The translations under genes and the position numbers were made by a program. From Chthoniobacteraceae bacterium (GTDB taxonomy: Bacteria; Verrucomicrobiota; Verrucomicrobiia; Chthoniobacterales; Chthoniobacteraceae), in assembly GCA_031409655.1 (NCBI GenBank), contig JANNXQ010000139.1:1-34847 (forward strand): a stretch of 34,847 nucleotides of DNA, given 5' to 3'. The notes below the pieces were generated by a model that was not told the origin of the DNA, made no database searches, and saw only the letters and a list, made by a program, of their open reading frames with translations. How positions within the stretch are numbered: position 1 is the stretch's first letter; each line of letters opens with the position of its first letter. Below, piece by piece: positions 5,001-30,491 of this stretch.

Positions 5001-8000
5001 GCCGAGATTCGTGGCGTTCACATTCAGCGTGCCGCGTGCGGCGCTGCGGGCCAGATTCGCGACGGAGACAGTGCTGGGCGCGCTGCTGCCGCTGGTGATC
5101 GTGAGCGTGCTGCCACCAGCCAGCGTGATGGGGCCGAGGTTGTGATTGCCTGGCGTGTTCGCGTTTTCCGTGAAGGCGATGCCGCCGCCCGCGAGGGTGA
5201 TGGGGGTGCTCGTGCCGATGCGATTGGCGATGGTGCCACCGGCAGCAGCGTTGTCGTCGGTGTTGTTGAACGCGAGCGTGCCGCCGCGGATTTCCACCGC
5301 CGTGCTGGCCAGGGTGCCCGCGCCGGCGAGCTGCAGTATGCCGCTCCGAATGACGGTGCTGCCCGTGTAGCTGAGCGGCTGGGTGAAGGTGCTGGTGCCG
5401 CTCGACTGGGAGGCTTTGGTTACGCCGCCGGTGCCGGTGATGTCGCCCGTGAAAAGGCCGCCAACGTTGTCGTAGATGGTGAGCCGGTTTGCGCCGAGGG
5501 CGACCGTTCCGTCGCTCACCTGGCCGAGATTGAACGACCCGATGATCGCCGCGGTGTTGAGGCTGGCGACGGAGCGGTCGCTGCCGCCGAGATCGAAGGT
5601 CGCTCCCGGCAGGACGGTGACGGCGCTGCCGAGGGGATTGAGCGCGGCCGTCGCACTATCGAGCCGGAGCGTGCCCTGCGCGACGGTCACCGCGCCGGTC
5701 GCTGTGTAACGACCGTTCAGAGCCAGCGTGCCCTCGCCATATTTCATGAGGCCAGCGCCGGGCAGGATGCTGCCCACGGTGAGCGTGGTGCCTGCGCCGG
5801 GGATGAGGAAAACGTAGCCCGCATTCGCGTCGGTGAGATTGGTGCTCAGGCTGGGCACGTCGATCGAGGCATTGCCCGTGGCCAGCACGGTGCTCTGGCC
5901 GAGGAGCAGCGTGCCGGGGCCGCCCACGCTCGCGCCGGCGCCCAGCTTCAGCGCGGTGAGGGCGGTGGTCTGATTCACCGAGGCCGCGCCGGTCAGGGCC
6001 ACGTTCGGCGCGCGGTTGAGGTCGAAATTTCCCGCCGGAATGGTGCCCGAGTATTCGCCCGCCGTGAGGGTGCGGAAGCCGGTGTCCGCCGCGTACGTGA
6101 GGAAATCCGTGCCGCTGCCGGTGGCGCTGGTGTCGCCCATGAAACCGGGGAGGAGATTGATGAAGGGCGTGCCTTCCGCGCCGCCCGCGCCGCCGAGTTG
6201 CACGCCGCCGCTGCCGAGATCGGTGACGAACCAGTTCGTGTTCCCCGGGCCGGGCAGCGCGCCGAGATTCGTGCCGCGGATGAGGCCCGCGCTGACGGCG
6301 CTGGTCCGGGCAAGCAGCCCGCTGGTGAGGGTGGTGCCGCCGCCAGAGAGCGTGACCGTGCCCGCGAAGAGATCGAGTTGATTGGTGCGCTCGCTGGTGC
6401 CCGCGGCGTGGCCGATGATTTTCAGCTCGCCGCCATTCAGCCGCAGCGCGCCGCTGGCGGCATTGCCGGTGCCGAAGGGCGTGTCCCACACGTCGGGCAG
6501 GCGGTTGTTGTTATTCGTCGCGGCGTTGTCGAGCACGAGGGCCGCGCCGGGATTCACGAGCACGGTGGCGGTGTTGAGGAAGCCGCCGGTGCCGGTGCTG
6601 TTGAGCAGGCTGCCATTCGCACCGCTGAGCCGCAGCGTGCCGCCGAAAATCTGGCTGGCTCCGGTGAACATCTCGGTGCCGGTGAGGTTCAGCTCACCCG
6701 CGCCGAATTTGTAGAGGCCGCGGATGGCGGTGCTGCGCGCATCGAGCAGCGTGCCGCTGAGGGTCACGGCGTTCCCATTTGTGTCGAAGCCAAACCCAGT
6801 GCCGTTCTGCGCGCTGTTCACGATGAAGTCCTGCGTGAGCGTCATCGGCGCATCGAAGCGCAGCGTCTGCCCGCCCGCGGTGCTGATCGCGGAGTCGGTG
6901 AAGACAACGCGGGGGTTCGTGCCGAGCGCGGCGGGGTTGTCGATGGCCAACGCGCCGGCGGCGATGAGCGTGGCACCGCTGTTCGTATTTGCGCCAGTGA
7001 GCCGCAGCACGCCGCTGCCGTCTTTTAAGATGCCGCCATTGCCACTCACGCTCGTGCTCGCCGCGTCCAGCGTGGTGCCGCTGACGACGTGGAAGCCCGC
7101 GCTCGCGCCGAGCCCCGCGCCACTGCCGCCTGCGGCGACGATACTCTTGCCAGTGAGCGTGGCATCGGGGCCGCGATACTTGAGGAAGCCGCCCCCGAGT
7201 TGGAGCTGGGTGCTGCCGCCGAGCGCGGCGAGATTGTCGATGACGAGATTGCCGGCGTTCACCGTGGTCGCACCGGTGAAGGTGTTGGTGCTGTTGCCGA
7301 GGTAGAGCGCGCCCGCGCCGGACTTGGTGAGGCCGCCGCTGGTGGTGACTTTCGCGCCGAGGGCGAGGTCGCCGACGGCGAAGACATTCAATTCCCGCGT
7401 GTTCGCCGCGCCGGTCTGGAGTTCGGCGACCTGGATGCCGAGCGGCACGCCCGCGGTGCCGGCAGCGTTGGTCGTATAGACATTCGCGACCGGACTGAGA
7501 ATGAGGCCGCTGGAGACGATGAGCTTCTCCGTCGTGGCGCTCTCGAGGCGCGTGCGGCTCGCGGTGCCGGCGAGGTTGAGAGCATTCACCGTCTTGTCCC
7601 CACCGCTGATCGTGGTGGTGGTGAGCGACCCGGTGTTGAGCCGCACGTTTTCCGTCGCGGCTGCGGTGGTGAGGCTGTCCCGCACTTCGGAGTTCGGGTC
7701 GGTGTTCAGCACGCGGACGCCGTTCGCGCCGTAGGTGACGAAGTTTGATCCCGGATCCGAGCCGGTGATTCCGCCGACTGCGTAAGGCAAGATGCTGATC
7801 GTTCTGGTCCCGATGGCGCCGCCACCGCCGACGAGTTGTGTACCGGGCAGATTGCCGAAGGTGAGCTTGGCGATCGCGGTCGTCGCCACCGCAGCCGTGC
7901 CCATGTTCGCATTCCCGGCGCGGAAGAGGAAGGTGCCTCGGTTCACGCGGGTGAGACCATTCGCGACGTCGCCGAAATTCAGCGTGCCGCCAGCGTTCAT

Positions 8001-11000
8001 GGTCACGATGCTCAGCCCCGCACCGCGCAGCGAGCCGACCGTCTCGCTCGTGGCGGTCCCACCGTTGGTGGTGAATTGAAACTCGCCCGCGTTGCTGAAG
8101 ATGGCCTGGGTGTCGGCGAGGCGCGTGCCGAGGTCGCTCGCGTTGTTGAGCGCGAGCAGCGGGCCGCGGTTCGTGTTGTTTCCCCACGCCCCGAGCGTCA
8201 TGGCGTTTTGGAAGGGCAGGGCACCATTGGCGGAGATGGTGGTCGTGCCGGTGCCGGAGAGCAGATGAAAGCCGCCGCCAAAGGTGTTGCCGCTGGCCGT
8301 CAGCGCGATCGAGCCAGTGCCAGTCTTGGTGAAAGCGGCGGCGGCGTTGCCGGTGATGTTGCCATCCCAGGTCATGGCAATGTTGTTGAAGCCGGTGGTG
8401 AGCTGTCCGCCGGAGCCGAGGGCGATATTCGATCCCGCGTCCAGATTCTGCACCGCCCCGAGCTCGCGCGCCTGGTTGGCGAGATTGAATGTGGTTTCCA
8501 CGCTAACCACGCGATCGACGCGCAACGTCGCGCGGCGCAATTGGCCGGTGCTCCCGAGCGTGATCGTATTTGCCGTCTCACCCGAGCTGATCCGCACCGG
8601 CGCAAAGAAAGACCGGTTGTCGCCAGAGATGATGAATTTTCCAGGACCGGAGAGGCTCAACTCAGCTCCGCTTACCGCCAGGATCTGGCCGGAAAGATCG
8701 AGCGTGGCCGTCGCGGTCGCGGCGTTGATCGTCTCGGTGCCGCCGAGGACGAAGATCGTGCGGGGCAGGGGAAAAGTCGTGGCGCTTCCAGGTGCAGCCG
8801 TGAGGCGGAGCGTGGCCGTACCATTTCCCAAGCGGATTCGGCTGCTGGCCGCGCCGAGCTGCGCGTTATCAGTGAAGGTCAGGATGCCGGCAGTGATTTG
8901 AGTATCGCCGGCGTAGTTATTGGTCGTGCCTAGATTGATCGTGCCGGTGCCGGATTTGTTGAAGCCGCCGCTGCCGCCGATCGTGCCATTGAGGGTCAGC
9001 GCGGTGCCGCTCGCGGCGCTGAGGCTATTGGCCAGCGTGACGACGGCGCTGGCGACCAGGGGCTGCGGGGTGGCGGCGAGAGTGATCGCTCGGCTTGTCG
9101 TGCTGTCCGCCGTGGCGTTTAAGGTGCCACCCTGAATGGTGATACCGTTGGCAAGATTCCCGAGCTGCGCATCCGCGCCGTAGTCGAGTCGGCCGGACCA
9201 GATTTCCACGCCGCCGGTGAAAGGATTCGGCAAAGTGCCATTGAGCGTGAACGGATTTGGGCCGGTCTTGACGAGCTTGCCAAATCCCTGAAGCACGCCC
9301 GCCGCCCCGCCAAAGCTGCCGCCGCTCACGCGCAAATCCACCGGCGTGAGCGCGGCGGAGCCGAGTTGCACCGTGTGCGCCTGGCCAAAGTCGCCCGCCG
9401 TGGTCAGCGAGGAAAAGCTGCGCCACGGCGTGCCGCTCGGCGCGGTCGCGGCGCTGAGATCCAGCCTGTAGGTGCCGGCTGGACCGGCGCTCGCGCCGAA
9501 GGTGACACTTGCTGCATTCAGCGCCCCCGGGCCCGCGAGGGCCAAGGTGCCGCCCTGGGTGGCGTCGCCGATGGAGACGGTCCCCGCATAGCCATTGTCC
9601 CCGCTGGCGATGGTGAGGGTGCCCGCACCGAAGATCTGCAGTGGCCCCGTGCCGTTGATGGGTCCGGAGAGCGTGACGGTGTTCCCACCCTTGAGCAATT
9701 GCAGCGCATTCCCCGTCTCGATGGTCAAAGCGCGCGCGCTCGTCCACGGTCCGGTGAGATTCAGCACGCCGCCGGAAGTGTGGAGGAAGCCGCCCGCCGC
9801 TCCGAGCCGAGCATCTGCATCGAACTGCAAAGTGCCGGCCCCGAGATAGGTGCCACCGGAGTAACTGTTCGTGCCGGCGAGGACGAGGGTACCAGCGCCG
9901 TCTTTCCGCAGGCCGCCCGCGCCGGTGATGTTGCTGTTCAAATTAAGCGTGGAGCTCGTGACGTTGAAGCCGGCGATACCGCCATTGGTGACGATCGGCG
10001 TCCCCAGGGTGTCCGAGCCGGTGAAAGTGAGGCCCGCGCCGGCGGCGGTCTGGCTGGGGCTGTTGAAAGTGAGCGACGTCGCGCCGCCGAGGCGCGCGAT
10101 CGCGCTGACGCTGAGTTGTCCGCCATTGATGGTGATGCCGCCGGCGATGGTATTGCCCGTGCCGGACAGGATGAGCGTGCCGTGCCCGCTCTTGACCAGC
10201 GATCCGGCGGTGACGGTCCCCGAGATCGTCAAAGTATTCGTCGTACTGAGTGGACCGACGACGCTGATCAGGCCCTCGCCCGCGCCACCCGCGCCGAGTT
10301 TCACCGGTGCGGCAATCGTGTGGTTGAGGACATTGCTCGCGAGCGCCCCGCTGGTGATCGTGATGGCATTCGCTCCGCCAATGCTCAGGCCGGGCGATCC
10401 GACGAAGATCGAATTCACGGTGACCGGCGCCAGGGGGGAGGTGACCGACCCGCTGATGCGCATGTTTTGAAAATTGTCCGGGAGGCCGTTGAAGTTGCTG
10501 GAGGTGTTGTATTCGTTCGCTGCCGTGTTCAGCAGCCGCACGCCATTTGCGGTGTAGGTCACAAAGCCGCTGCCGGCGGCGTAGCTGGTGCCGGTGTTTA
10601 CGATGTCTCCCAGTGCCCAAGGGAGGATGCTGATGGTCGGGGTGCCCGCGCCGCCACCACCGCCGACCAGCGCTCCTGCGGGAGCCGCGCCATTCAGCAG
10701 CGTGAGCAGCACGTTCCCCTGGGCCGCCGCTAGCCCCGGTCCAGCCGCTGCACCGCCAAGATTCGGTCCGGTGAAAGTGACTGTGCCGCCCGCGCTGCGG
10801 ATGAGATTGGCGATGGCCACCTCCGTCGCCGCGCCCGCTGGGGGCGAGACGCCGCCCGCGGTGCCCGCAACGATCGTGGTGAGCCCGCCCGGATTCACCG
10901 TGCCGAGGCTCTGCGTGACCAGGCCGTCATTGCCAAACGTCTCGAGGAAACCGCCGGTGACCCCGATGCTGGTCCAGGCCGAGACGCGCGAGTTTGCCGC

Positions 11001-11975
11001 CGAATGCCCGTCGCCATACTGCAAGCGGAAGGTGCCGCCTGCGCTCACCCCGATCCCCGAAGTCTGAAGGATCGAGCCCGCCGCACCGGTGATGTAAATG
11101 GACGCCGCGTTATCCACCGCCGTCGCCGCGTGATCCAGCGCGCGCACCGTCGTGGCACCCGCGTAAGTATTGATGCCCCGGAGTTGAAGCACTCCCGCGG
11201 AACCGGAGCCGCTCTGGGTCACGCCGCCCGCGCCGCTGAGAACGCCGGCGAGAGTGAGTGTCGATGAGCCGTTGAGCTTGAGGTTGCCGTTGAGGGTGAC
11301 GTTGTTCGCAACGGTCTGCGCGGACGCCGTGCGCAGATTGCCGCCATTGATGGTCAGCGAATTCGCGCGATCGCCGAGCGCGCGGGCGTTTGCGAGGTCC
11401 AGGGTGCCGGAGTTCAGCACCACACCGCCGGAGAAAGTATTCGCGCCGCTGAGCTTGACGATCCCGGTGCTCGCATTCCCCGCATCCGTGGCGATGACCA
11501 GCGGCGCGCCGGCCGCGGTATTCGACGAGACGACGCCTGAGACGGTGAGAGCGCCCGCCCCCGCGCCGTCGAAGGTGAGTGAGGTGAGTCCCGAACCCAG
11601 CACGACGCCCGCCGAGAGTGTGACCGTCGCGCTGGAGCCGAAATTGATCGCCCCCGCGCCGCTGAAAGCGAAGTCGCCGCCGAGCAAACTGGCCAGCGTG
11701 AGCGTGCCATTGCCCGCGAGGTCGAGCATCTGCAGGGTGAGATTGAGATCATTCAACGCCGTGAGCGACCCGCCAAAGCTCTGCAACCTGAGCGCCAGCG
11801 CCGCATCGCTCGCCGGCCCCGGCCCCGCGCCGAAGTTCCAGACGAGCGGATTGGTGAAGGTGCCGTTGCCTGGCGCCGTGTACGTCTGTGCCGGACTTGG
11901 CACTGTGGCGAGGAGCAGCGCTGCGACGCTGTTCGCGAGCGGACGCGGACGCCGGGACGGATTAGGGGGACTCAT
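2010..11975 (-). CDS. Giant (3,321 aa) surface protein with autotransporter-associated beta-strand (PATR) repeats and PEP-CTERM sorting signal
   Basis: N-terminal signal peptide; many GGLxKxGxGTLxLxGxNTY/FxGxTxIxxG repeats; C-terminal VPEPSGVVVGLAMFGLAGWRERRK (PEP, TM helix, basic tail); no beta-barrel translocator. Confidence 0.93.
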   Translation of the reverse strand: MSPPNPSRRPRPLANSVAALLLATVPSPAQTYTAPGNGTFTNPLVWNFGAGPGPASDAALALRLQSFGGSLTALNDLNLTLQMLDLAGNGTLTLASLLGGDFAFSGAGAINFGSSATVTLSAGVVLGSGLTSLTFDGAGAGALTVSGVVSSNTAAGAPLVIATDAGNASTGIVKLSGANTFSGGVVLNSGTLDLANARALGDRANSLTINGGNLRTASAQTVANNVTLNGNLKLNGSSTLTLAGVLSGAGGVTQSGSGSAGVLQLRGINTYAGATTVRALDHAATAVDNAASIYITGAAGSILQTSGIGVSAGGTFRLQYGDGHSAANSRVSAWTSIGVTGGFLETFGNDGLVTQSLGTVNPGGLTTIVAGTAGGVSPPAGAATEVAIANLIRSAGGTVTFTGPNLGGAAAGPGLAAAQGNVLLTLLNGAAPAGALVGGGGGAGTPTISILPWALGDIVNTGTSYAAGSGFVTYTANGVRLLNTAANEYNTSSNFNGLPDNFQNMRISGSVTSPLAPVTVNSIFVGSPGLSIGGANAITITSGALASNVLNHTIAAPVKLGAGGAGEGLISVVGPLSTTNTLTISGTVTAGSLVKSGHGTLILSGTGNTIAGGITINGGQLSVSAIARLGGATSLTFNSPSQTAAGAGLTFTGSDTLGTPIVTNGGIAGFNVTSSTLNLNSNITGAGGLRKDGAGTLVLAGTNSYSGGTYLGAGTLQFDADARLGAAGGFLHTSGGVLNLTGPWTSARALTIETGNALQLLKGGNTVTLSGPINGTGPLQIFGAGTLTIASGDNGYAGTVSIGDATQGGTLALAGPGALNAASVTFGASAGPAGTYRLDLSAATAPSGTPWRSFSSLTTAGDFGQAHTVQLGSAALTPVDLRVSGGSFGGAAGVLQGFGKLVKTGPNPFTLNGTLPNPFTGGVEIWSGRLDYGADAQLGNLANGITIQGGTLNATADSTTSRAITLAATPQPLVASAVVTLANSLSAASGTALTLNGTIGGSGGFNKSGTGTINLGTTNNYAGDTQITAGILTFTDNAQLGAASSRIRLGNGTATLRLTAAPGSATTFPLPRTIFVLGGTETINAATATATLDLSGQILAVSGAELSLSGPGKFIISGDNRSFFAPVRISSGETANTITLGSTGQLRRATLRVDRVVSVETTFNLANQARELGAVQNLDAGSNIALGSGGQLTTGFNNIAMTWDGNITGNAAAAFTKTGTGSIALTASGNTFGGGFHLLSGTGTTTISANGALPFQNAMTLGAWGNNTNRGPLLALNNASDLGTRLADTQAIFSNAGEFQFTTNGGTATSETVGSLRGAGLSIVTMNAGGTLNFGDVANGLTRVNRGTFLFRAGNANMGTAAVATTAIAKLTFGNLPGTQLVGGGGAIGTRTISILPYAVGGITGSDPGSNFVTYGANGVRVLNTDPNSEVRDSLTTAAATENVRLNTGSLTTTTISGGDKTVNALNLAGTASRTRLESATTEKLIVSSGLILSPVANVYTTNAAGTAGVPLGIQVAELQTGAANTRELNVFAVGDLALGAKVTTSGGLTKSGAGALYLGNSTNTFTGATTVNAGNLVIDNLAALGGSTQLQLGGGFLKYRGPDATLTGKSIVAAGGSGAGLGASAGFHVVSGTTLDAASTSVSGNGGILKDGSGVLRLTGANTNSGATLIAAGALAIDNPAALGTNPRVVFTDSAISTAGGQTLRFDAPMTLTQDFIVNSAQNGTGFGFDTNGNAVTLSGTLLDARSTAIRGLYKFGAGELNLTGTEMFTGASQIFGGTLRLSGANGSLLNSTGTGGFLNTATVLVNPGAALVLDNAATNNNNRLPDVWDTPFGTGNAASGALRLNGGELKIIGHAAGTSERTNQLDLFAGTVTLSGGGTTLTSGLLARTSAVSAGLIRGTNLGALPGPGNTNWFVTDLGSGGVQLGGAGGAEGTPFINLLPGFMGDTSATGSGTDFLTYAADTGFRTLTAGEYSGTIPAGNFDLNRAPNVALTGAASVNQTTALTALKLGAGASVGGPGTLLLGQSTVLATGNASIDVPSLSTNLTDANAGYVFLIPGAGTTLTVGSILPGAGLMKYGEGTLALNGRYTATGAVTVAQGTLRLDSATAALNPLGSAVTVLPGATFDLGGSDRSVASLNTAAIIGSFNLGQVSDGTVALGANRLTIYDNVGGLFTGDITGTGGVTKASQSSGTSTFTQPLSYTGSTVIRSGILQLAGAGTLASTAVEIRGGTLAFNNTDDNAAAGGTIANRIGTSTPITLAGGGIAFTENANTPGNHNLGPITLAGGSTLTITSGSSAPSTVSVANLARSAARGTLNVNATNLGLTQSPIGGARIFLTQIEGGAPAAALSGGGGAVGTTNQSILPWAFQPATSSYLTYGADGLRPLATSEYATSLISAGPTDNVRSTGADMLVATTTVNSLVVTGGNVTGAFDLTLDSGGLSITGAGLTLGAITNALLTGSGNTRELVINDSGGTTLDYNLTTSGGVTKSGAGALILGGTNTFTGGLTINEGAVNFASDANLGTAGGAVRFGGGSATSLTYTGSDTLAFNRAVETTGFGAFTGAAYQRWQLNQAITGAGGIGYATSDAVFEINAANNYTGPTQWSGGHLYIDGDSAFGNGGEILLATSATGQDIVLRGNWTSGRLIHAAGTTNAGAIQTNGYDATWSGQFVGSTTLNKNGTGNLILTEAMPYSGALTVNAGAVVLRDRGSLAANACTHTVNAGAALTLDDTGTHSSDRLHDNAGGVTLNGGSLNLLGSGSATTEEVFNGLALGAGASTVTLTPGSGQAAIVRLAGLPTNAATAASLWRGTNLGVNAPGTANSANLLLTPTNTNEFPLIGGGAPAGHPSISIIRGGFGDTSATGLGTQLVTYDPVKGVRLLHPATEFTATLVDGSAVTDNVKADGSAIALPSATTINALWLKDVSSVTGIGELTLTSGNLLVTGIGNIVSKTIRAGSNALAIGGSGDVTFDINSAITSSVGLIKTGAGTLTLSVANTYGGDTVLKDGVFAVGDASAFASTGLFIQGGEIRNVSGSPLTLVNNLTLNGPMKIGGAEDFEFSGFVTLNSATREIETTNTGTTTFSGAISSSQTLINYGLTKTGPGLLVLANTNFFDGPTTVHTGTLETTAFEALGYTASVAVNAGGTLLLSSLSDQVNDSAPVTLAGGKIRGAVDGLDEQFGTLTLSANSVIDFGTFASGIVLRFDDSSALGANWTGTTLSVWNWTAGLDRLYIGVDPSGLLGGQLSKINFYSNSGTTLATGFTGGLYNTFAPFDGTLGEVSATPVPEPSGVVVGLAMFGLAGWRERRKSEKRRQESRRGGAA

Positions 11976-12155
11976 GGTAGGAGTTCAGACTTGCGACGGA
12001 CACTCGGCCCTACTGCCATTGGCTGTTAGCGTCATGCGCGGAGGAGAGGTACACCGCAAATGGCCGGATCGCAAAATTCATTCCTGTAGGAATCGTCTGA
12101 CACAGAGGGGTCTGGGGCCAGCAAGCGTTTGAATCCCGACTCCCGCCGCTTCCGA

Positions 12156-12187
12156 CCTTTCGGCTTTTGCCTTTCGGCTTTTGCCTT
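12156..12187. repeat. 14-bp tandem repeat CCTTTCGGCTTTTG x2 plus partial copy
   Basis: Exact copies at 12156-12169 and 12170-12183, then CCTT. Confidence 0.7.
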
Positions 12188-12233
12188 GGCTGGCGCGGGG
12201 AAGCCCCGTTTAGTCGCGGGCTTCCCTTTTTAC

Positions 12234-14636
12234 ATGAAAATCTCCCTCAACTGGCTCCGCGAGATCGTCGAATTGCCACCGACGGTCGATGCGCTTGTCG
12301 ATTTGCTCACGCTCGCTGGCGTGGAAGTCGAAGGTGTCGAGACGCGCGGGTGCGCGATCCCGAGTGTCATCGTCGCGCAGATCAAGGAATCCGTGCAGCA
12401 CCCGAATGCCGACCGGCTCAGTGTCTGCCAGGTGGACGATGGCACCGGCACCGCGCGGCAGATTGTTTGCGGCGCAAAGAATTACAAAGTCGGCGACAAG
12501 GTGCCGCTCGCATTGCCGGGAGCGAAGCTCGGGCCGGATTTCACGATCAAGGTCGGCAAACTGCGCGGCGTAGAATCGCAAGGCATGATGTGCAGCGCGA
12601 AGGAGCTGCAACTCGCGGAAGACGCGGAGGGCCTGCTCATCCTGCCGGCGGAGTCCTCGATCGGCACACCGATCGGCGATCTCTTCCCGTCCGACACGAT
12701 CCTCGATCTCGAGATCACGCCAAACCGTGCGGACTTGCTCAGCGTAAATGGCATCGCTCGCGAGATCGGCGCGCTCACCGGCAAACCGGTTCGCCTCGCT
12801 GGGCCGAAAGCCACGCCGCCGACCACTGGTCTGGCGGCCATCCAGGTCGCCACGAGCGCCTGCCCGCTTTACACCGTGTGCAAGATCAGCGGCGTAACGG
12901 TCGGTCCGAGCCCGGAGTGGCTGCGCCGCCGACTCGAGGCCGTTGGCTTGCGCCCGATTAACAACATCGTTGATGTCACCAACTTCGTGATGCTCGAACT
13001 CGGCGAGCCGTTGCACGCGTTCGACGCGGCGAAGGTGAAGGGCGCGCTGAACGTGCGCGCGGCGCGGGCTGGCGAGGAGTTCCTCGCGCTCGATGGCAAG
13101 ACGTATCAACTCGGCGGGCAGCACATGGTGATCGCGGATGAAACGCACGCGCTTGCCGTGGCCGGGGTCATGGGGGGCGAAGGTAGCGGTGTCTCCGCAT
13201 CGACCACCGAGATCTGGCTCGAGAGCGCCGCCTTCCAGCCGCAGAGCATCCGTCGCACCTCCCGGGAACTCGGTCTCGCGAGCGACTCCAGCTATCGCTT
13301 CGAGCGCGGCGTGGATGCCGCTCTCATTCCGTTCGCTTCTGCCCGTGCGACTGAGCTGATCATGGAACTCTCCGGCGGTTCCGCCGCGTCCATGGTCTGT
13401 GGCGTCCCAGAGGATTCGGTACTCAGCGGAAAGCCGGTCGTGGACTTCGTAGCGGAGATGAGTCCGCGCAGCGTGGCGCTGCGTCCCGATCGTTTGCAGG
13501 CCTTGCTCGGCATCGCGGCGTCAGGCGAGCGCATCGAGCGGATTCTCACGGGGTTCGGCCTCGGCAGAACGGGCGACCAACAGTGGAGCGTCCCCAGTTT
13601 TCGCCCCGATCTCACCCGCGAGATCGACCTCATCGAGGAGATCGCCCGCGTCGTCGGGATGGACGCCATCCCCGCGCGGGTGCAGGCGCGCATCGCCGCG
13701 GCCTCACCGACGGACCTCGCGTATGATCGCGCAATGACTCTCCGCCGGGCGCTCGTCGCGCAAGGTCTGCACGAAGCGCGCAGCCTCACGCTGGTCCCCG
13801 CCGAGCCGCGCGGTCTCGCTTTCACCCAAGCCTTGCCGGAAAATCTGCTCCGCGTGAAGAACCCGATGATCGACGATCAGGTCGTCCTCCGTCCAGGCCT
13901 GCTCCACGGCCTGCTCGGAGCCATCGCCACCAATGTCCGTGGCGGAACCGCGAGCATTCGGCTCTTCGAGATCGGGCGTGTCTTCAGCGCGAGCGCGGGC
14001 CGCGAAGAGACCACCCACGCGGCGCTCGTTCTCACCGGCCCGAAGAGCGAACGCTCGTGGCGCGAAGGCGAAGGCCGCGACGCCGACCTCTACGATCTCA
14101 AAGGCATCCTTACCGCCGCACTCGGCGAAGGCACGACCTTCAAGCCGGTGGAAAATCCCGCGCTCGCGCTCTCGCTGACCGTGGAGATGAATGGCCAGCC
14201 CATTGGCTTTGCCGGCCAGCTCTGGCCCGCTGACGCGCGTGCGCTTGACGCCAGCGCTCCGATCGTTTTTGCCGAGTTCGGACTCGAATTGCTCGCCACA
14301 GCCCGCGCGGAAAATGCCGCGAAGAAATATCGCGAGATCCCGCGCTTTCCGGCGATGACGCGCGACATCGCGCTCCTCGCTCCGCTGAATCTCGCGCACG
14401 ACGCCATCGTCGACGCGCTCACCGGCGCGGACGAACCGCTGCTCGCCAACGTCGAACTCTTCGACGTTTTCACCGATCCCACCGGCGCGAAAGTGCCCGC
14501 CGATCAGCGCTCGCTCGCCTTTTCGCTCACCTACCGCAGCACCGAGCGCACGCTCACCGCGGACGAAGTGAACACCGCACACGCGAAGCTGAAGGAGCGC
14601 CTGAAGAACAACCTCGCGGTCGCGCTGCGGGAGTAG
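12234..14636 (+). CDS. pheT: Phenylalanine--tRNA ligase beta subunit
   Basis: Start reassigned to ATG 12234 (MKISLNWL); HPNADRLSVC, IVCGAKN, EITPNRADLLS, SSYRFERGVD, DLIEEIAR and SLAFSLTYRSTERTLT motifs. Confidence 0.98.
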   Translation: MKISLNWLREIVELPPTVDALVDLLTLAGVEVEGVETRGCAIPSVIVAQIKESVQHPNADRLSVCQVDDGTGTARQIVCGAKNYKVGDKVPLALPGAKLGPDFTIKVGKLRGVESQGMMCSAKELQLAEDAEGLLILPAESSIGTPIGDLFPSDTILDLEITPNRADLLSVNGIAREIGALTGKPVRLAGPKATPPTTGLAAIQVATSACPLYTVCKISGVTVGPSPEWLRRRLEAVGLRPINNIVDVTNFVMLELGEPLHAFDAAKVKGALNVRAARAGEEFLALDGKTYQLGGQHMVIADETHALAVAGVMGGEGSGVSASTTEIWLESAAFQPQSIRRTSRELGLASDSSYRFERGVDAALIPFASARATELIMELSGGSAASMVCGVPEDSVLSGKPVVDFVAEMSPRSVALRPDRLQALLGIAASGERIERILTGFGLGRTGDQQWSVPSFRPDLTREIDLIEEIARVVGMDAIPARVQARIAAASPTDLAYDRAMTLRRALVAQGLHEARSLTLVPAEPRGLAFTQALPENLLRVKNPMIDDQVVLRPGLLHGLLGAIATNVRGGTASIRLFEIGRVFSASAGREETTHAALVLTGPKSERSWREGEGRDADLYDLKGILTAALGEGTTFKPVENPALALSLTVEMNGQPIGFAGQLWPADARALDASAPIVFAEFGLELLATARAENAAKKYREIPRFPAMTRDIALLAPLNLAHDAIVDALTGADEPLLANVELFDVFTDPTGAKVPADQRSLAFSLTYRSTERTLTADEVNTAHAKLKERLKNNLAVALRE

Positions 14637-25050: not shown

Positions 25051-26471
25051 TCGGCAAAGCGCAGCGCGTAGAGATCGGCATCGTGCAACCGCACGCGCAA
25101 GCGGCCGGTCCGTCCTTGGAGCGCGCTGAGATCGTTCCCGCTTTTCCAGGTCGCGGCAGCGTCGAACTCGTCGCCATAAAGCGCGGGCATCTCGGCCAGC
25201 GCAAAGCCGGGGATCGGCTGGCCAGCTTCGTCTTGCAGCTCGATCTGCACGGAGCCGACTGCCGAGGTGGCGTAGTTCAGGAGCAGTTTCTTCCCGGTGA
25301 ACTTGATGGGATGTGTCGTGAATTCTCCGCCTTTTGCATCGGCGTGCATGGAGGCAAAGCCTTGCTTCCGCACACTGAGCCGTCGGATGCGATGGTCGGC
25401 GTGGCGGTAGTGTTCGCTGATGTAGAGCGACCACTCATCCGGCCCGGACTCGATGATGCCATAAGCCGTCATGTTATTGCGATCGGTCCAGTTCTTGAGA
25501 TCCGGCCCGGGACGCACCCATGCTTCCAGGAAGGGGCGATCCCACAGCACCCCGTCACGGCTCGACATAAAGACGGCATCGGAAACACCGGGGCCGCCGG
25601 GGTGATCCGGCACCTTCTTGCGGGTGGTGGCGAAGCGCTTGGGAAAGGAGAGAAAGAGATGCGGTGCCGTCGGGCAGGGAACCGTGGCGGAGGTGTAGAA
25701 GTGCTCCGACGGCACGCCCTCCGCGTAGCGATGTGGGACGCCGTCGCTCCAGGTGAGGAAATCGGCGGAGGTGCTGCTTTGCACAGCGCGGACTTTGTTA
25801 CTGAAGATGCGGCTGAAGCTGACGTAGCGATTTCGCGGATTGTCGTAGAAGGCGAGGTTCTGCGAATCAAATGCGCCCTTCGTGATGACGGGCTCCGGCT
25901 TGATCTTCTGCCAGTGGATGCCGTCGGCGGACGCGAAGGCATAGAGCCCGCCCGGAGTTTCTCCCTGGTGCCAGTTCTTACCCGGTTGCTTTACGCCGCC
26001 GAGCGCCTTGTAGCGTTCCTCGGGTTTCGCGTTCGGGTTGGTGTCGAGGAAGGGCGAGAAGTTATGCGACTCCACCCCGCGCCAGATGACGTTGTTGTCC
26101 TTCGTGCCGCCGGCTTCGATCAGCCCAAGCTTTGGCCTGGTGAAGTGAATGCCGTCCGCGCTTTCCGCCACACAGGTGACCTGCGCGTCGCTGTGATCCG
26201 AGCCTCCGGCCGAGCCGCGATAGTACAGTCGCACTTTGGTTCCATCCTGGATCGCGGAGAAGTACGCACAGGTCGGCCCTTCCCACGGCTGATCGGTAGT
26301 AAGAACGATCTCGCGCCGGATTGGATCGTGCAGCTTGAGGGTGACGCCGCCTTTTCGCGCGACGAGGAATTCATCGACGAAGAGTTCCCAACGCGAGCCA
26401 ATGTCGAGTGGCGTGGCTGCGTGGAGGGCTGCGGTGGCGCAGAGGAGGAGGGAGGGGAGCAGTGCTTTCAT
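25047..26471 (-). CDS. Secreted glycoside-hydrolase-like beta-propeller protein
   Basis: Signal peptide MKALLPSLLL; ELFVD, SADGIHF, SADGIHW, FDSQN, SADFLTW, SRDGVLW; C-terminal LLLNYATS...DADLYALRF domain. Confidence 0.8.
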   Translation of the reverse strand: MKALLPSLLLCATAALHAATPLDIGSRWELFVDEFLVARKGGVTLKLHDPIRREIVLTTDQPWEGPTCAYFSAIQDGTKVRLYYRGSAGGSDHSDAQVTCVAESADGIHFTRPKLGLIEAGGTKDNNVIWRGVESHNFSPFLDTNPNAKPEERYKALGGVKQPGKNWHQGETPGGLYAFASADGIHWQKIKPEPVITKGAFDSQNLAFYDNPRNRYVSFSRIFSNKVRAVQSSTSADFLTWSDGVPHRYAEGVPSEHFYTSATVPCPTAPHLFLSFPKRFATTRKKVPDHPGGPGVSDAVFMSSRDGVLWDRPFLEAWVRPGPDLKNWTDRNNMTAYGIIESGPDEWSLYISEHYRHADHRIRRLSVRKQGFASMHADAKGGEFTTHPIKFTGKKLLLNYATSAVGSVQIELQDEAGQPIPGFALAEMPALYGDEFDAAATWKSGNDLSALQGRTGRLRVRLHDADLYALRFAE

Positions 26472-26773
26472 AGTTCGGAGAGAATCTCGGCGATGGGAAC
26501 CGCGCTGCCTCCGCGCTCGCGACTGCGGAGGCCGGCGATGGTGACCGCCAGCGGTTTCTCGACGAACATATGCAGCGTCTCGGCCAGAGCCTGGAGCGCC
26601 ATAGGCAAGTGCAACGACGCGGGGGTACAGATCACTGCGGCATCGAAGTGGCCCCTCGCAAGAGCCGCGTCGAGGGAGGCGCAGGCCGCCACGGAGCAAC
26701 GCCCGGTCTGCTGATAGCAGCGCAGGTGACGTCCACCGATGTTACCGCAACCGATGACGAGGAGGGAAAGCAT
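26468..26773 (-). pseudogene. Internally deleted Gfo/Idh/MocA oxidoreductase
   Basis: LVIGCGNIGGRH, DAAVICTPASLH and FVEKPLA motifs in only 101 aa; C-terminal domain missing; stop overlaps the next ATG. Confidence 0.75.
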
Positions 26774-26947
26774 GTCTGCCGAAGGATGAGCCACCGAACT
26801 TCCTCCGCCCAGTGCATTCCGCTGGTTCCGTGGCGTGGCCAACTCCTGCGACCGAAGGCTGGCCGTTCCTGCAGAGGTGTCATTTTTTGGGCCGCCGGTC
26901 ACTCCTTGATTTGCAAAACACGGCCAACCAGCGAAAAGCTAACGCCT

Positions 26948-28333
26948 GTGAAATTCAATTGTCCTTCCTGCAGCATGCATCTGATGGCCGAGCCTGAAAT
27001 GGCCGGACAGGTCGTTAAATGTCCGGGTTGCAATGCCAAGATCCAGATTCCCGGAACCCCCCCCGAAGCGGAACAGCCGGCCCCGGGGGTGCCGCCGCCG
27101 AACCCCCCAAGACGGGGCAGCGTTGGAACAGAGGCCCGGTTTAATCCGACCGGCGATCCGCAGCGCAAGGCCTGGATCGAGGAAGATCCCACGAATCCGA
27201 ACGCGCGCGTCAGCTTCGGCATTGGCTTGGGGGTCACGATCGTCTGGTTTGCGATCATCTATTTCTTCCGAGCGTCGCCGACCAAGGTCTCCTCCGAGTT
27301 CAACGCTGGCGAGGTGCTCGCGAATCTCTTCTACAACCATTTCACGGTGAGTTTCGCAAATACGCTCTTCTTCTGCTGGGCGATCGCGATCTGTTTCCTC
27401 AAGTGGAAGAAACTGGAGCATCAGCGACAGGCAATGATTCTCGACGTACTGCCTATGGAAATCGGCAAGGAGATCAACGCCTCCAATGTCGGGCTCTTCA
27501 TCGATCACGTTTACCGGCTCCCATTTAACCTCCGTGACAGTTTGATGGTAAATCGCATTCGCAAGGCGCTCGAGTTCTTCGAAATACGGCAGAACGTCAC
27601 GGACGTGAGTGCGATGATGAATAGTCAGTCGGGGATCGACGGTTCGCGCATCATGGGCAGTTACATCATGATCCGGGCGTTTCTCTGGGCGATTCCCTTG
27701 CTCGGCTTTATCGGCACGGTCATCGGACTCTCGCAGGCGATCAGCGGCATGAGCTTCGCGAATGTGGAGGATGTCGGGAAGATCGTTGGCTCGATCAATA
27801 ACGTAACAAGCGGACTGGGTACGGCATTTGACGCCACGCTGCTCGGGTTGGTCTTCGCGGTCATCCTGAACTTTCCGCTCAACTCCCTCGCCAAACACGA
27901 GGAAGAAGCGCTCAACGACATCGACGCTTTTTGCAACGAAGTGCTGCTCCCGCGTCTGAACGACGGCGGTGGCGCGGCAGGCGGAGATCTCGGAGCCGTG
28001 GGGGATTCGGTGGTGCGGGCGATCGCCGGAGCCCAACGGGAGTTTCTCACCGATCTCAACGAACTCTCCGCGCGGCTGCTCGAATACACGAATAACATGG
28101 ACCGGCGCATCGAGATCCACCAGCAAGCGGCGATCACGCAGTTCGTCACGCACATGACCGCGATGCGCGGAGAGGTGGAGACGAGCATCAATGAATCAAT
28201 GCGCGTGGCCTCCCAGTATCTCGGCGGCCTGGAGTCTGGGATTCAGAGTCTCAATGCGGTGCTGGAGCAACTCGGTGAGAAGCAGGTGGTCATCCAGCAG
28301 GTGAAGAAGAAAGGCTGGTTCAGCCGCGAGTAA
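26948..28333 (+). CDS. MotA/TolQ/ExbB-family channel protein with N-terminal zinc ribbon and long C-terminal tail
   Basis: GTG start; CPSC...CPGC; Pro-rich linker; two N-terminal TM segments; WAIPLLGFIGTVIGL...GLGTAFDATLLGL signature; helical tail ending KKKGWFSRE. Confidence 0.9.
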   Translation: MKFNCPSCSMHLMAEPEMAGQVVKCPGCNAKIQIPGTPPEAEQPAPGVPPPNPPRRGSVGTEARFNPTGDPQRKAWIEEDPTNPNARVSFGIGLGVTIVWFAIIYFFRASPTKVSSEFNAGEVLANLFYNHFTVSFANTLFFCWAIAICFLKWKKLEHQRQAMILDVLPMEIGKEINASNVGLFIDHVYRLPFNLRDSLMVNRIRKALEFFEIRQNVTDVSAMMNSQSGIDGSRIMGSYIMIRAFLWAIPLLGFIGTVIGLSQAISGMSFANVEDVGKIVGSINNVTSGLGTAFDATLLGLVFAVILNFPLNSLAKHEEEALNDIDAFCNEVLLPRLNDGGGAAGGDLGAVGDSVVRAIAGAQREFLTDLNELSARLLEYTNNMDRRIEIHQQAAITQFVTHMTAMRGEVETSINESMRVASQYLGGLESGIQSLNAVLEQLGEKQVVIQQVKKKGWFSRE

Positions 28334-28371
28334 CTCGGCGGGAGCACTGAACTTTCGGAGCCCTCCGCCAC

Positions 28372-29334
28372 ATGGCCAGAAAACGCGCTCACCGGACGGA
28401 CGAGATCATGTTGATCCCGTTTCTGGACATCCTGTGCTCGTTGATCGGAGTGCTGGTGCTGATCATCGTGGTGCTCGTGGTGGCCCAGACGCAAAAGATC
28501 AATGGACGCACGCCGGAAGAGCTGCAGCGAGCCACCGATCACCTGAAGTTGCTCAAGCTGCAAAAGGAGAACGAAAAGGTGAGCGCAATCGTGGAGGACA
28601 AGACGGAGCTGCTTGAAAAACTAAAGGAACAGGCCAAGGAAAAAGCCGAACAGTTGGCGAAATTGCGGAAGTTGCTCGATACCTCGGCGGCGGCGCGGGA
28701 GAAGAACCTGGAGCTAAGTCAGAACCTCCTCAAGGAACTGGATAACCTGCTCCTCGAAATCAACGGCCTCAATACTCAGGAACCACCCTTAAAGAAAGAG
28801 ATCGCGGCGCTGGAGGCGGAGATCAAGCAGCGGAAACCGCCCGTGGTGAAAGGGCCGGCGGTGGTGGTGCAGCCGGGGGGATCCGGCCTGGCAAAAGGGA
28901 CGAGAGTGTTTTTCGTCGAAGCCTCTGCGGGGAAGCTGACGTTTTACTGGGACGAAAAGACGAAGACCGCGGTGAGCGCGGTGGCTGATGTGATCGCCGC
29001 AGACGTTGCTTTCAATGCCTTCCTCAGGGGCGTGCTGACCGTGCCGCAGAGTAAAATCATCTTCCTGCTCCGGGAGGATGGCATGGGGGCCTTTAACCTT
29101 GGTGCCGGTTGGGCGCAGGCGACTTATGGTTACAAGGTCGAGCAGATCGGTCGTTTGCCGATCCCGGGGCGCGGAGAGATTGATCTCAAGATGTTCAGCG
29201 AGTTTCTCGGCGCAATGGCGCCTCCGCCGGAAGCCATCGCTCCGCCCCAGGCGACCCCGACTCCGGGCGCGCCAAAGACAACCCCGGCTCCCGGAAAGCC
29301 GGCCGCGATTCCAGCTCTGCCGCCCAAAGCATAA
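28372..29334 (+). CDS. ExbD/TolR-like single-TM protein with long coiled coil (paralog 1)
   Basis: MARKR...EIMLIPFLDILCSLIGVLVLIIVV (Asp in TM), E/K/L-rich heptad region, C-domain with IIFLLREDG, Pro-rich tail. Confidence 0.75.
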   Translation: MARKRAHRTDEIMLIPFLDILCSLIGVLVLIIVVLVVAQTQKINGRTPEELQRATDHLKLLKLQKENEKVSAIVEDKTELLEKLKEQAKEKAEQLAKLRKLLDTSAAAREKNLELSQNLLKELDNLLLEINGLNTQEPPLKKEIAALEAEIKQRKPPVVKGPAVVVQPGGSGLAKGTRVFFVEASAGKLTFYWDEKTKTAVSAVADVIAADVAFNAFLRGVLTVPQSKIIFLLREDGMGAFNLGAGWAQATYGYKVEQIGRLPIPGRGEIDLKMFSEFLGAMAPPPEAIAPPQATPTPGAPKTTPAPGKPAAIPALPPKA

Positions 29335-29342
29335 CCTGACCC

Positions 29343-30491
29343 ATGGCACGCCGCGCCAAGCCTCACGAAGAAGAACTGCCGTTTGTCGCTTTGATGGACA
29401 CGATGACGAACGTCGTCGGGGTGCTGATCATCGTGCTCGTGATGATCGGTATCGGGCTCGCGAAGTCCGTGCGCAAAGTGCTCTCCGATCTCCCGCCGGT
29501 GCCGATCGAAGAGCACGAGAAGCTTAAGAAGGAGGTCGAAAAACTCCAGCCGAAGAAGGATCCGAAGGAAGTGGAGGACGAGACCAAAATACTGGAGCAG
29601 GAACTCAAGAAATCGACGGAGGAGCTGCAGACGATGGAAGTCTCGAAGGACCAGCAAAAGATCAAGATCGTGGATCTCGACGACTTGCAAAAGCAGCTCG
29701 AGACGCGGAAGAAAGAGCGCGAGACGAAGAAGGCGGCGGTGGATCGGTTACTCGCCGAACTCGACAAGATGAAAGCCCAGCTCGACACCACGCCGGTGTA
29801 TCAGCCGCCGCCAGCGACGATCGTAAAGCTGCCGAATCCGCGACCGATGCCGGATAAGGCCGAAGTGCAGCACTTTCTCGTGATCGGCGGACGCGTGATT
29901 TACACCAATGATGAGCAATTCAACGATCTCGTGGAGGCCGAGCTGAAGAAGAGTGAGTCCGCGCTCGCCATCAGCCGCGAGACGGTCAAAGGGCCGGATG
30001 GCAAGCCGGTGATGGTGAAGGATAAGTCCGGCCGTTCGTCGCCCCAGCGGAAGATTGTCTTCGATCCGAAGAAACTCACCGATCACTTTGCGCGACTGCG
30101 TCTCGGCAGCCGGGAGATCAAAGTGGAGGTGGTGCCTTCTCCTGCATCGCCACGCATCCCGATCAAACTGACGCCCTTGCCAAACGCGGGCGAAACGCCT
30201 GAGCAGACGAAGAATCTCGTGTCCGTCTTTCAAACGCTGGTGCGCAAATTCAAAGCCAATCCCAAGGCGGTCATTTGGTTCCATGTTTATAAGGACTCGC
30301 TGCCGACTTACCTTGCGGTCCGCGATATTGCGGACCAACTCGGGGTGCCGGTTGGTTGGGACATTTACGGGAGCCCGGCTTATGTGCGCAACTTACCGGC
30401 GGAGTACTCAGTGCCGGTCACCGCGCCGGCCAAGCCTGCGGCTGACCCTGGTCGGGTAATCATCGCGCCTCCGAAGACGACTCTGGACTGA
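29343..30491 (+). CDS. ExbD/TolR-like single-TM protein with long coiled coil (paralog 2)
   Basis: MARRAK...ELPFVALMDTMTNVVGVLIIV (Asp in TM), coiled coil, C-domain IWFHVYKDS..TYLAVRDIADQLGVPVGW resembling the ExbD periplasmic fold. Confidence 0.75.
   Translation: MARRAKPHEEELPFVALMDTMTNVVGVLIIVLVMIGIGLAKSVRKVLSDLPPVPIEEHEKLKKEVEKLQPKKDPKEVEDETKILEQELKKSTEELQTMEVSKDQQKIKIVDLDDLQKQLETRKKERETKKAAVDRLLAELDKMKAQLDTTPVYQPPPATIVKLPNPRPMPDKAEVQHFLVIGGRVIYTNDEQFNDLVEAELKKSESALAISRETVKGPDGKPVMVKDKSGRSSPQRKIVFDPKKLTDHFARLRLGSREIKVEVVPSPASPRIPIKLTPLPNAGETPEQTKNLVSVFQTLVRKFKANPKAVIWFHVYKDSLPTYLAVRDIADQLGVPVGWDIYGSPAYVRNLPAEYSVPVTAPAKPAADPGRVIIAPPKTTLD

Follow-up and report, generated by a model that had tools for sequence, protein, structure and literature searches.

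Flagella and outer-membrane uptake are powered by ion-driven 5:2 membrane motors of the MotA/TolQ/ExbB superfamily, and models of these motors assume a pair of equivalent aspartates acting in alternation. Heterodimeric axles and motors without a transducer have already been proposed in print, which limits the surprise of meeting either of them again. Here, we describe three + strand open reading frames (ORFs), A, B1 and B2, which stand in tandem in a contig of a Chthoniobacteraceae bacterium (GenBank assembly GCA_031409655.1, contig JANNXQ010000139.1). This contig of 34,847 nucleotides, analysed in full and referred to as the window, is part of a genome of 6.85 Mb. The A-B1-B2 module is likely a relative of these motors. 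Judged from sequence comparisons, it would work like a 5:2 motor, yet it fails defining features of ExbBD/TolQR, MotAB, Zorya and the transpore-helix (TPH)-vWA systems, and its main point of interest is an aspartate asymmetry between B1 and B2. The genes are separated by gaps of 38 nucleotides (A-B1) and 8 nucleotides (B1-B2), exactly as given in the first-pass annotation of this DNA:

26948 to 28333, + strand: gene A, 461 amino acids (aa) from a GTG start; MotA/TolQ/ExbB-family subunit (Pfam PF01618), predicted to form a pentameric ring.
28372 to 29334, + strand: gene B1, 320 aa; membrane helix with D19 (28426-28428), stalk, head of TolR/ExbD fold and low-complexity Pro-rich end.
29343 to 30491, + strand: gene B2, 382 aa; membrane helix with D19 (29397-29399), broken helical stalk, head of TolR/ExbD fold with a large insert and conserved C-terminal PPK-xLD end.

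The closest named homologs of the three genes are from Chthoniobacteraceae, homologs of A begin at the same place as the GTG start chosen here, and the homolog counts of 1212, 712 and 559 for the three genes argue that the triple is not a product of chance. The module has the features that unite the 5:2 superfamily, i.e. a MotA_ExbB domain, the pore Pro and Thr residues and a co-encoded single-pass partner with a conserved membrane Asp (B2).

Among the described systems, ZorAB (PMC11946911; match to PDB 8vvn) provides the best profile matches of A and, like the module, has a ring subunit of the MotA family that extends into a long helical tail in the cytoplasm; both also share a stiff connection from the membrane helix to the head in the periplasm. 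In contrast to ZorAB, A scores under the ZorA cut-off and has an N-terminal zinc ribbon, the two B subunits differ from each other and carry heads of TolR/ExbD fold with no OmpA match in Pfam, and no ZorC, ZorD or ZorE gene is nearby. AglRQS of Myxococcus xanthus likewise combines a ring gene with two distinct TolR-fold partners and is modelled as AglR5:Q:S with a heterodimeric axle (PMC11761067), the kind of axle also predicted here, and its wider machine includes a zinc-ribbon switch (GltJ). The module differs from AglRQS in its stalks of ~145 residues, in the fusion of the ribbon to the ring subunit and in the Asp asymmetry; no conserved neighbouring transducer or Glt-like genes were found beside it, and no genome search for Glt genes was made. 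The TPH-vWA pairs (Williams-Jones et al. 2025, PMC12204202) share a TolQ-like gene with a heterologous pair of transpore helices, need neither TonB nor TolA and occur in Verrucomicrobia. As described there, both transpore helices keep the Asp, whereas here only B2 does so reliably; moreover, B1 and B2 have TolR/ExbD-fold heads and no vWA match in Pfam, and A carries a ribbon and a tail.

With ExbBD of the Ton system and TolQR of the Tol-Pal system, the module shares the pore Pro/Thr residues, a membrane Asp in the ExbD register, the periplasmic fold and likely the NIBS-type strand. It differs from them in the four predicted membrane helices and family-specific Asp295 of A, in the long insert between membrane helix and head that makes B1 and B2 much larger than a subunit of ~140 aa, and in the lack of linkage to tonB, tolA, tolB, pal or a receptor gene. 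The dimeric subunit of GldLM (type IX secretion and gliding; PMC9389320) has a long periplasmic arm of 18 nm, comparable to the length predicted here. GldLM is described as lacking obvious homology to MotAB at the sequence level, whereas A belongs to the Pfam MotA_ExbB family, and the arm here is a helical stalk with a TolR-like head. From the flagellar stators MotAB/PomAB the module is set apart by the absence of OmpA matches in B1 and B2 and by the genomes, counted below, in which FliG was not found. Finally, in contrast to the GTPase-centric GAP1-N2 systems, genes for a DO-GTPase and GAP1-N2 are not part of the module operon and accompany a sister triple only. Our literature search found no description of the A-B1-B2 triple, although supplements (PMC12204202, PMC12505986, PMC7159879) and subscription papers lay outside it and may list members; PMC12505986 refers, giving no details, to non-flagellar homologs whose periplasmic domains are very large.

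Ring subunit A and the aspartate asymmetry

A matches Pfam MotA_ExbB with E 1.8e-10 and 41.1 bits (cut-off 22.9), in agreement with the MotA/TolQ/ExbB type assigned to it in the first pass. Its best matches outside Pfam are ZorA models, all under cut-off (NCBIfam NF033915, 32 of 100 bits; another ZorA model, 22.9 of 500 bits; PADLOC ZorA2, E 6.3e-10), and the NCBIfam models for TolQ (18.4 of 221 bits) and MotA (17 of 340 bits) are also under cut-off. The following parts can be recognized in A:

26960 to 27031, + strand: N-terminal zinc ribbon, CxxC...CxxC (C5, C8, C25, C28), presumably cytoplasmic.
27209 to 27400, + strand: membrane helices 1-2 (about residues 88-106 and 133-151), placed on hydropathy peaks, with predicted topology.
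27668 to 27877, + strand: pore helices 3-4 with P250, T257, D295, A296 and T297, aligned to TolQ, MotA, ZorA and PomA.
27980 to 28330, + strand: cytoplasmic helical tail with a basic-aromatic end, assigned by helical periodicity.

Hydropathy thus predicts four membrane helices. To follow these parts across the family, we sampled the best 80 of 154 relatives in a genome collection together with five genome stretches and, from metagenomes, the best 80 of at least 556 relatives with a distant member as lead. The four ribbon Cys residues are invariant in a diverse alignment of 16 rows, and the ribbon is present in 132 of the 143 loci with a complete 5' end. The tail has a periodicity of 3.65 (0 of 300 shuffles as strong), extends 79-667 aa beyond the last membrane helix (median 152, n=147) and ends in the basic-aromatic C-terminus in 128 of 147 loci. 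In one set of loci (L053, L055, L061, L077, L078, L126, L127, L135) A reaches 850-960 aa with a tail of up to 667 residues, and the sizes of B1 and B2 are unchanged. Another branch of A (L133, L146, L147, L151, L153, L172, L177, L180, L184) is ~350 aa long with a short tail and no ribbon; the cluster of one member is named Opitutales, and several members have Glu at the position of the TolQ acidic residue.

The ribbon has a weak match in the PDB (7zok, E 0.25), and a related zinc ribbon is described as the cytoplasmic switch of the Myxococcus gliding machine (PMC11135422). The same ribbon is found in other proteins of the own genome of the module, i.e. a double-ribbon protein and two proteins with a ribbon and a long coiled coil (G000:C147:22215-22697, C62:6254-7426, C181:2547-4970), which are possible cytoplasmic partners or regulators of the module.

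Pore residues were counted over 166 loci, which are not independent and some of which are near-identical. On the ring side, P250, T257 and T297 show no variation in 165 of 165 loci, and 164 of 165 have Asp at position 295; this extra Asp is specific to the A family and aligns with a hydrophobic residue in the TolQ, MotA, ZorA and PomA proteins used for comparison. Position 296 is Thr in 90 loci and Ala in 75. On the axle side, 131 of 133 loci have Asp at position 19 of B2, and the other two are mis-assembled rows, one a gapped fusion and one a split ORF. Position 19 of B1, in contrast, varies: of 150 loci, 82 have Asp and 68 have Ser. An Asp on each of the two axle helices, as in the window, is seen in its clade, and the 68 relatives carry Ser in B1. 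The first-pass annotation had staked its motor reading on conservation of the membrane Asp among homologs, and this conservation holds for B2 and fails for B1. The motor reading nevertheless survives a Ser in B1 because B2 and A keep their acidic and Thr residues.

The same asymmetry could point to a function that is not rotary, with the module acting as a gated ion channel, a sensor or a spacer between inner membrane and wall on a retained 5:2 scaffold. One axle helix is commonly without Asp, not only in the Ser-type B1 proteins but also in the stalkless sister triples described below, in which this position is Cys in all 11 sequences read. We consider a non-rotary function very improbable: the ring-side pore residues and the B2 Asp are invariant and, among the 64 loci with Thr296 in A, B2 has a second Asp one turn away in 62.

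How the variable positions are combined can be seen in the 129 loci in which B1-19, B2-15 and A-296 are all available: 65 are D/V-or-A/A (the window type), 52 are S/D/T, 10 are D/D/T and two are single cases. In a quick tree of A (118 rows, with the outgroup on a very long branch and the trait column left in), 64 window-type rows group in a single clade (SH-aLRT 100) that lies within the Ser-type rows, and D/D/T has two separate origins. Ser at position 19 of B1 looks ancestral in this tree, and, as the window-type combination forms one clade, the three-residue change would be a single event. For this reason, we rejected co-evolution of the three pore residues as a statistical signal.

T257, position 296 and T297 of A align with T158, T185 and T186 of PomA (residues counted along the PomA stretch, with the register taken via Bacillus subtilis MotA and TolQ). 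The sodium filter of PomA is described as consisting of three Thr residues, two of which are replaced by Ala in proton stators (PMC10374538). It may therefore be hypothesized that the window-type branch underwent a change from sodium to protons. The ZorA chain in the same alignment reads Thr/Thr/Ser and Zorya is described as proton-driven (PMC11946911), so that the Thr/Thr/Thr sodium motif is not decisive.

B1, B2 and the stalk

B1 and B2 are paralogues (hhalign probability 95.8). Each has a basic start and one strong hydrophobic segment, with PFLD in B1 and ALMD in B2, and their ExbD/TolR/MotB-like beginnings are as initially annotated. Neither protein has a Pfam family above cut-off, including OmpA and vWA; B1 matches Pfam ExbD weakly and over its first 95 residues only (E 0.023). 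In the AlphaFold2 models (mean pLDDT 79 for B1 and 77 for B2) each protein consists of a membrane helix, a stalk and an alpha/beta head:

28513 to 28833, + strand: B1 stalk, one predicted helix of 107 residues (48-154); AlphaFold2, pLDDT mostly 83-93.
28870 to 29187, + strand: B1 head, TolR/ExbD periplasmic fold (TolR 5by4; ExbD 8pek and 8vgd).
29505 to 29789, + strand: B2 stalk region, three predicted helices (55-68, 74-97, 112-149); AlphaFold2, pLDDT 47-75 over residues 41-110.
29805 to 30383, + strand: B2 head, opening with a likely NIBS-type strand; model residue 161 superimposes on ExbD residue 43, the start of the ExbD periplasmic construct.

In a fold comparison of the two models with 48,161 chains, the best globular match of both heads was Escherichia coli TolR (5by4), with Z 7.6, a root-mean-square deviation (rmsd) of 3.4 and 88 of 105 residues aligned for B1, and Z 6.2, rmsd 3.5 and 93 of 105 residues aligned for B2 (model residues 155-343). 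The B1 head also matches ExbD in 8pek and in 8vgd, a D-box-bound form (Z 6.3 each), and the B2 head (model residues 161-347) matches 8pek with Z 4.7. An OmpA/MotB head is absent from the lists of fold matches, which is no proof of absence; Foldseek gave no match at E<=0.001 for B1 or B2, and an Atlas search with either protein returned unnamed clusters only. The ExbD-like head proposed earlier is in this way recovered as a fold with moderate scores, but not by Foldseek or by profile comparison.

The superpositions begin with the first strand of the ExbD/TolR periplasmic domain, and the stalk is therefore best understood as an insert between the membrane helix and that strand. The span from membrane motif to head is ~145 residues in both subunits (B1, median 148, n=111; B2, median 144, n=105). 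With a rise of 0.15 nm per residue, the 107 predicted helical residues of B1 correspond to a stalk of ~16 nm. The B1 stalk has a heptad period of 3.5 (18 of 300 shuffles as strong) and B2 has no clean heptad signal (156 of 300 shuffles as strong). The coiled coils of about 100 aa initially proposed for both proteins are therefore a fair description of the single B1 helix and fit the three helices of B2 only loosely. In ExbD and TolR five residues separate the membrane helix from the NIBS strand, and in TonB the distance between helix and D-box is 10-15 residues (PMC12905483). The B2 head has variable inserts and a conserved tip motif; B2 variants of ~515 aa in Prosthecobacter-like genomes (a subset of L064-L090, and L132, L143, L152, L185) have an extra insert of ~130 residues inside the head.

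The predicted complex of B1 and B2 has a pair score of 0.56, compared to 0.00 for the best of 3 controls, with runs that agree in at least 85% of contacts and a partner pLDDT of at least 75. Pair scores of 0.60 or less are rated weak, as this range contains 18 of 157 solved complexes and, out of 215 mismatches, both of those that passed, and likeness to solved TolR/ExbD dimers may contribute to the score. The prediction lends weak support to a B1:B2 heterodimer.

A conserved stalk on two unlike partners raises the possibility of another model, doubtful but close behind the one favoured below. With the A ring held still, the B1:B2 stalk would turn as a shaft and act directly, with no need of TonB or TolA, on a target in the outer membrane or the periplasm; such a mechanism has been proposed for GldM and for TPH-vWA pairs. 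Stalk length is conserved in both subunits, and the B1 helix is near the 18-nm GldM shaft in length. Direct rotation has been proposed for TolQ-like genes with paired transpore-helix vWA proteins (PMC12204202), and one locus (L106:5712-10171, genome G285) with a TolQ-like gene and two stalked vWA partners (vWA recognized by eye) matches this published arrangement and scores weakly against all three family profiles. In addition, the variable inserts and conserved tip motif of the B2 head would suit a shaft, and the basic-aromatic end of A could hold the ring. Against rotation of the stalk, the heads have the anchor-type TolR/ExbD fold and not a vWA or Ig-like fold, a homologous triple without stalk exists and no outer-membrane partner is conserved next to the module.

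Neighbourhood, spread and sister triples

The order A-B1-B2 is kept in 112 of the 114 loci with room for the whole module, among 164 loci with A, and the other two have A-B1 only. No conserved fourth gene was found in the 80 genome loci and the window, nor in the distant loci; the module is surrounded by housekeeping and carbohydrate genes. A scan of 107 flanking ORFs, which represent 146 (many of them without match and some perhaps not genes), gave 0 matches to TonB_C, 0 to OmpA and 1 TonB-dependent receptor. None of the 20 window ORFs scanned matched TonB, TolA, OmpA, flagellar or receptor families. Both the absence of such genes from the window, pointed out in the first pass, and the fact that homologs do not routinely stand beside TonB or receptor genes are thereby confirmed, and the neighbourhood survey it called for extends the conserved gene order to two phyla: the named homologs are from Verrucomicrobiota and Planctomycetota (Pirellulales, Thermoguttaceae, Phycisphaeraceae, Ca. 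Anammoximicrobium). Cultured hosts include Verrucomicrobium sp. BvORR034 and BvORR106. B2 alone comprises 752 clusters at 50% identity (E<=1e-10). Within Verrucomicrobiota the spread is patchy, with the module in 9 of 151 genomes of an order sample and 6 of 301 genomes of a phylum sample. FliG is present in 7 of 9 module genomes and 8 of 142 others of the order sample, but these belong to a few related genera; an obligatory tie to flagella was rejected because 6 of 13 module genomes, and 4 of 6 in the phylum sample, gave no FliG match.

The own genome has ten MotA_ExbB genes, several with ordinary ExbD and TonB-like neighbours, and a single copy of the A-B1-B2 triple. Two of its ordinary ExbB loci (L007, L008) each have a pair of different short ExbD-like genes, and two different ExbD-like genes per ExbB have been noted for PVC bacteria (PMC12204202). 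Two unlike ExbD-like genes per ExbB are thus common in these bacteria, and the two distinct subunits singled out at the outset are present but are no special feature of the module.

The presence of ordinary Ton components in the same genomes bears on a further possibility, namely that the module supplies energy for uptake or envelope upkeep in the manner of ExbBD/TolQR, through a borrowed transducer of the TonB, TolA or vWA type whose gene lies elsewhere. TonB_C is found in 5 of 5 module genomes tested and TonB-dependent receptors in 11 of 13, one locus (L147) has a receptor upstream, and the heads match ExbD including its D-box-bound form. However, the ~145 intervening residues put the head out of the reach of an ordinary D-box, the own genome has ordinary ExbBD-TonB loci of its own, and two module genomes of 96-98% completeness gave no receptor match; we consider a borrowed transducer improbable. 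Both of these genomes have TonB_C, and independence from receptors is therefore weakly supported. The initial suggestion of a motor without a TonB-like transducer accordingly holds for the surroundings of the module, but not for the genome as a whole, in which a transducer may be encoded elsewhere.

The resemblance of A to ZorA and the patchy spread would also fit the core of a Zorya-kind anti-phage or conflict system with effectors encoded elsewhere, and to these can be added the variable tail of A and a sister triple in an operon of the GAP1-N2 GTPase class, predicted to be conflict systems (PMC7159879). We consider this quite improbable. Among 110 flanking ORFs (immediate same-strand neighbours; E<=1e-10) there were 0 Zor effectors, and the 3 that match PADLOC models do so via generic Fic, ABC-ATPase and kinase domains. 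The housekeeping and carbohydrate neighbours, the high sequence conservation (52-78% identity among the best 120 B2 homologs) and a G+C content of 58-60% for the module compared to 59-69% elsewhere in the window also speak against a defence system.

The sister triple came from a looser search that matched 59 of 301 phylum genomes, of which 36 stretches were examined. It has a short A with neither ribbon nor tail and stalked B1 and B2 (hhalign 99.2 and 99.4 to the window family), and it sits behind a GYF/zinc-ribbon GTPase and GAP1-N2 (14 of 36 loci each) and a 1000-aa protein (17 loci). In these loci (L236-L242, L245, L247, L250, L251, L254, L256-L258, L267-L269; e.g. L257:952-12116) the 1000-aa protein is helical and membrane-bound, and a vWA or zinc-ribbon-ankyrin gene sometimes follows. 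The own genome has an operon with GTPase, GAP1-N2, 1000-aa protein and a GYF-type gene without a motor triple behind it (L272, G000:C62:9930-18422). GAP1-N2 systems are described as predicted conflict systems that act near the membrane, and the words ExbB, TolQ and proton are absent from the main text of that paper (PMC7159879). From its gene content, the sister locus is predicted to be a GTPase conflict system with its own ion-motor module. GTPase and GAP1-N2 profiles had 0 matches in the 166 module loci, and a GAP1-N2 operon as obligatory companion was rejected because GAP1-N2 occurs in only 2 of 9 module genomes of the order.

A second sister triple is stalkless (17 of 36 loci: L243, L244, L246, L248, L249, L252, L253, L255, L259-L265, L270, L271), with B1 of ~170 aa and B2 of ~210 aa (hhalign 76 and 97.7 to the window family). 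It carries the Cys at the B1 Asp position mentioned above and has two Asp residues in B2 in 11 of 11. A 670-aa NHL-repeat protein stands between A and B1 in seven loci, and the genes after the triple (11-12 loci) read like what we take to be fabZ, lpxA and the type II secretion genes gspD/E/F. That a homologous triple exists without stalk argues that the stalk is an insert and that a long shaft is not needed for the core. Across the three families compared, the constant core appears to be a ring gene and an unequal pair with a reliable Asp on B2, to which stalk, ribbon and tail are added as modules.

In the window itself, no sigma-70 site was found for the operon. A short Gfo/Idh/MocA oxidoreductase fragment (Pfam positions 47-102 of 120) just upstream of A (26468-26902, - strand) is probably what remains of a longer gene; several homologous loci are flanked by full-length members of this oxidoreductase family. 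A gene for a 3321-aa PATR-repeat protein with a PEP-CTERM-like end (2010-11975, - strand) splits the opposite-strand genes for phenylalanyl-tRNA synthetase alpha (957-1970) and beta (12129-14636).

Working model and implications

Combining these data with the described motors, we tentatively favour, at somewhat less than an even chance, a model in which the module is an inner-membrane ion-driven motor with an A5 ring, a B1:B2 axle anchored by its heads, a turning ring and a cytoplasmic output. By analogy to MotAB, ExbBD, ZorAB and AglRQS, (i) a ring of five A subunits would surround one B1 and one B2 membrane helix (5:1:1), (ii) ions would pass Asp19 of B2 and Thr257, Thr297 and Asp295 of A, (iii) the axle would be fixed in the envelope, to peptidoglycan, by its two TolR-like heads on their stalks, and (iv) rotation of the A ring, together with its zinc ribbon and helical tail, would transmit force or a signal to cytoplasmic partners encoded elsewhere. 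The cellular job, which is the weakest step of the model, would probably be envelope sensing or the positioning of a cytoplasmic complex.

Rotation could be that of the ring or that of the axle. We favour a ring that rotates around an axle anchored by its heads and acts on the cytoplasm for several reasons: the TolR/ExbD fold of the heads binds peptidoglycan in TolR and ExbD (PMC12905483), A resembles ZorA, one sister triple is linked to a GTPase module of the cytoplasm, and stalkless triples exist. The cytoplasmic parts of A are also elaborate, which makes an output on this side at least as likely as a periplasmic shaft. In Zorya, a wall-anchored B and a rotating tailed A are described to recruit cytoplasmic effectors (PMC11946911). 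What was originally read as an orphan ion-motor module thus keeps its stand-alone MotA/ExbB ring, its two TolR/ExbD-like partners and its lack of a neighbouring transducer, whereas the periplasm-spanning shaft now ranks closely below a cytoplasmic output.

Several observations weigh against a turning ring on an anchored axle. The Ser found in B1 of 68 loci does not fit the standard rotary scheme with two alternating Asp residues. The ~145-residue span is kept in both B1 and B2, suits a shaft and exceeds the ~9 nm to peptidoglycan quoted for model bacteria (PMC12905483). The fold matches of the heads are moderate, all under Z 8, and a profile comparison of B1 and B2 with nine ordinary ExbD/TolR proteins of the own genome was not significant. 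On the cytoplasmic side, 11 of 143 A proteins are without ribbon, several of them short (~350 aa), no cytoplasmic partner is conserved beside the module, and GAP1-N2 is as scarce in module-bearing genomes of the order as given above.

A more detailed version of this model, which we regard as rather unlikely in its entirety, would be a PVC-wide 5:1:1 motor that ancestrally had one canonical axle Asp, a second Asp one turn down the same helix and an invariant ring Asp present five times. The branch of the window would have been re-wired in one step (Ser-to-Asp in B1, Asp-to-Val in B2 and Thr-to-Ala in A, the last at the position of PomA T185) from sodium to protons, and the motor would drive a zinc-ribbon/GTPase-linked cytoplasmic machine via a wall anchor on 16-nm stalks.

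The module adds an unannotated envelope machine to Planctomycetes and Verrucomicrobia. Given that a large family that usually has Ser or Cys on one axle helix combines this replacement with an invariant ring Asp, its members provide natural variants for testing the need for two Asp residues and the choice between sodium and protons in 5:2 motors.

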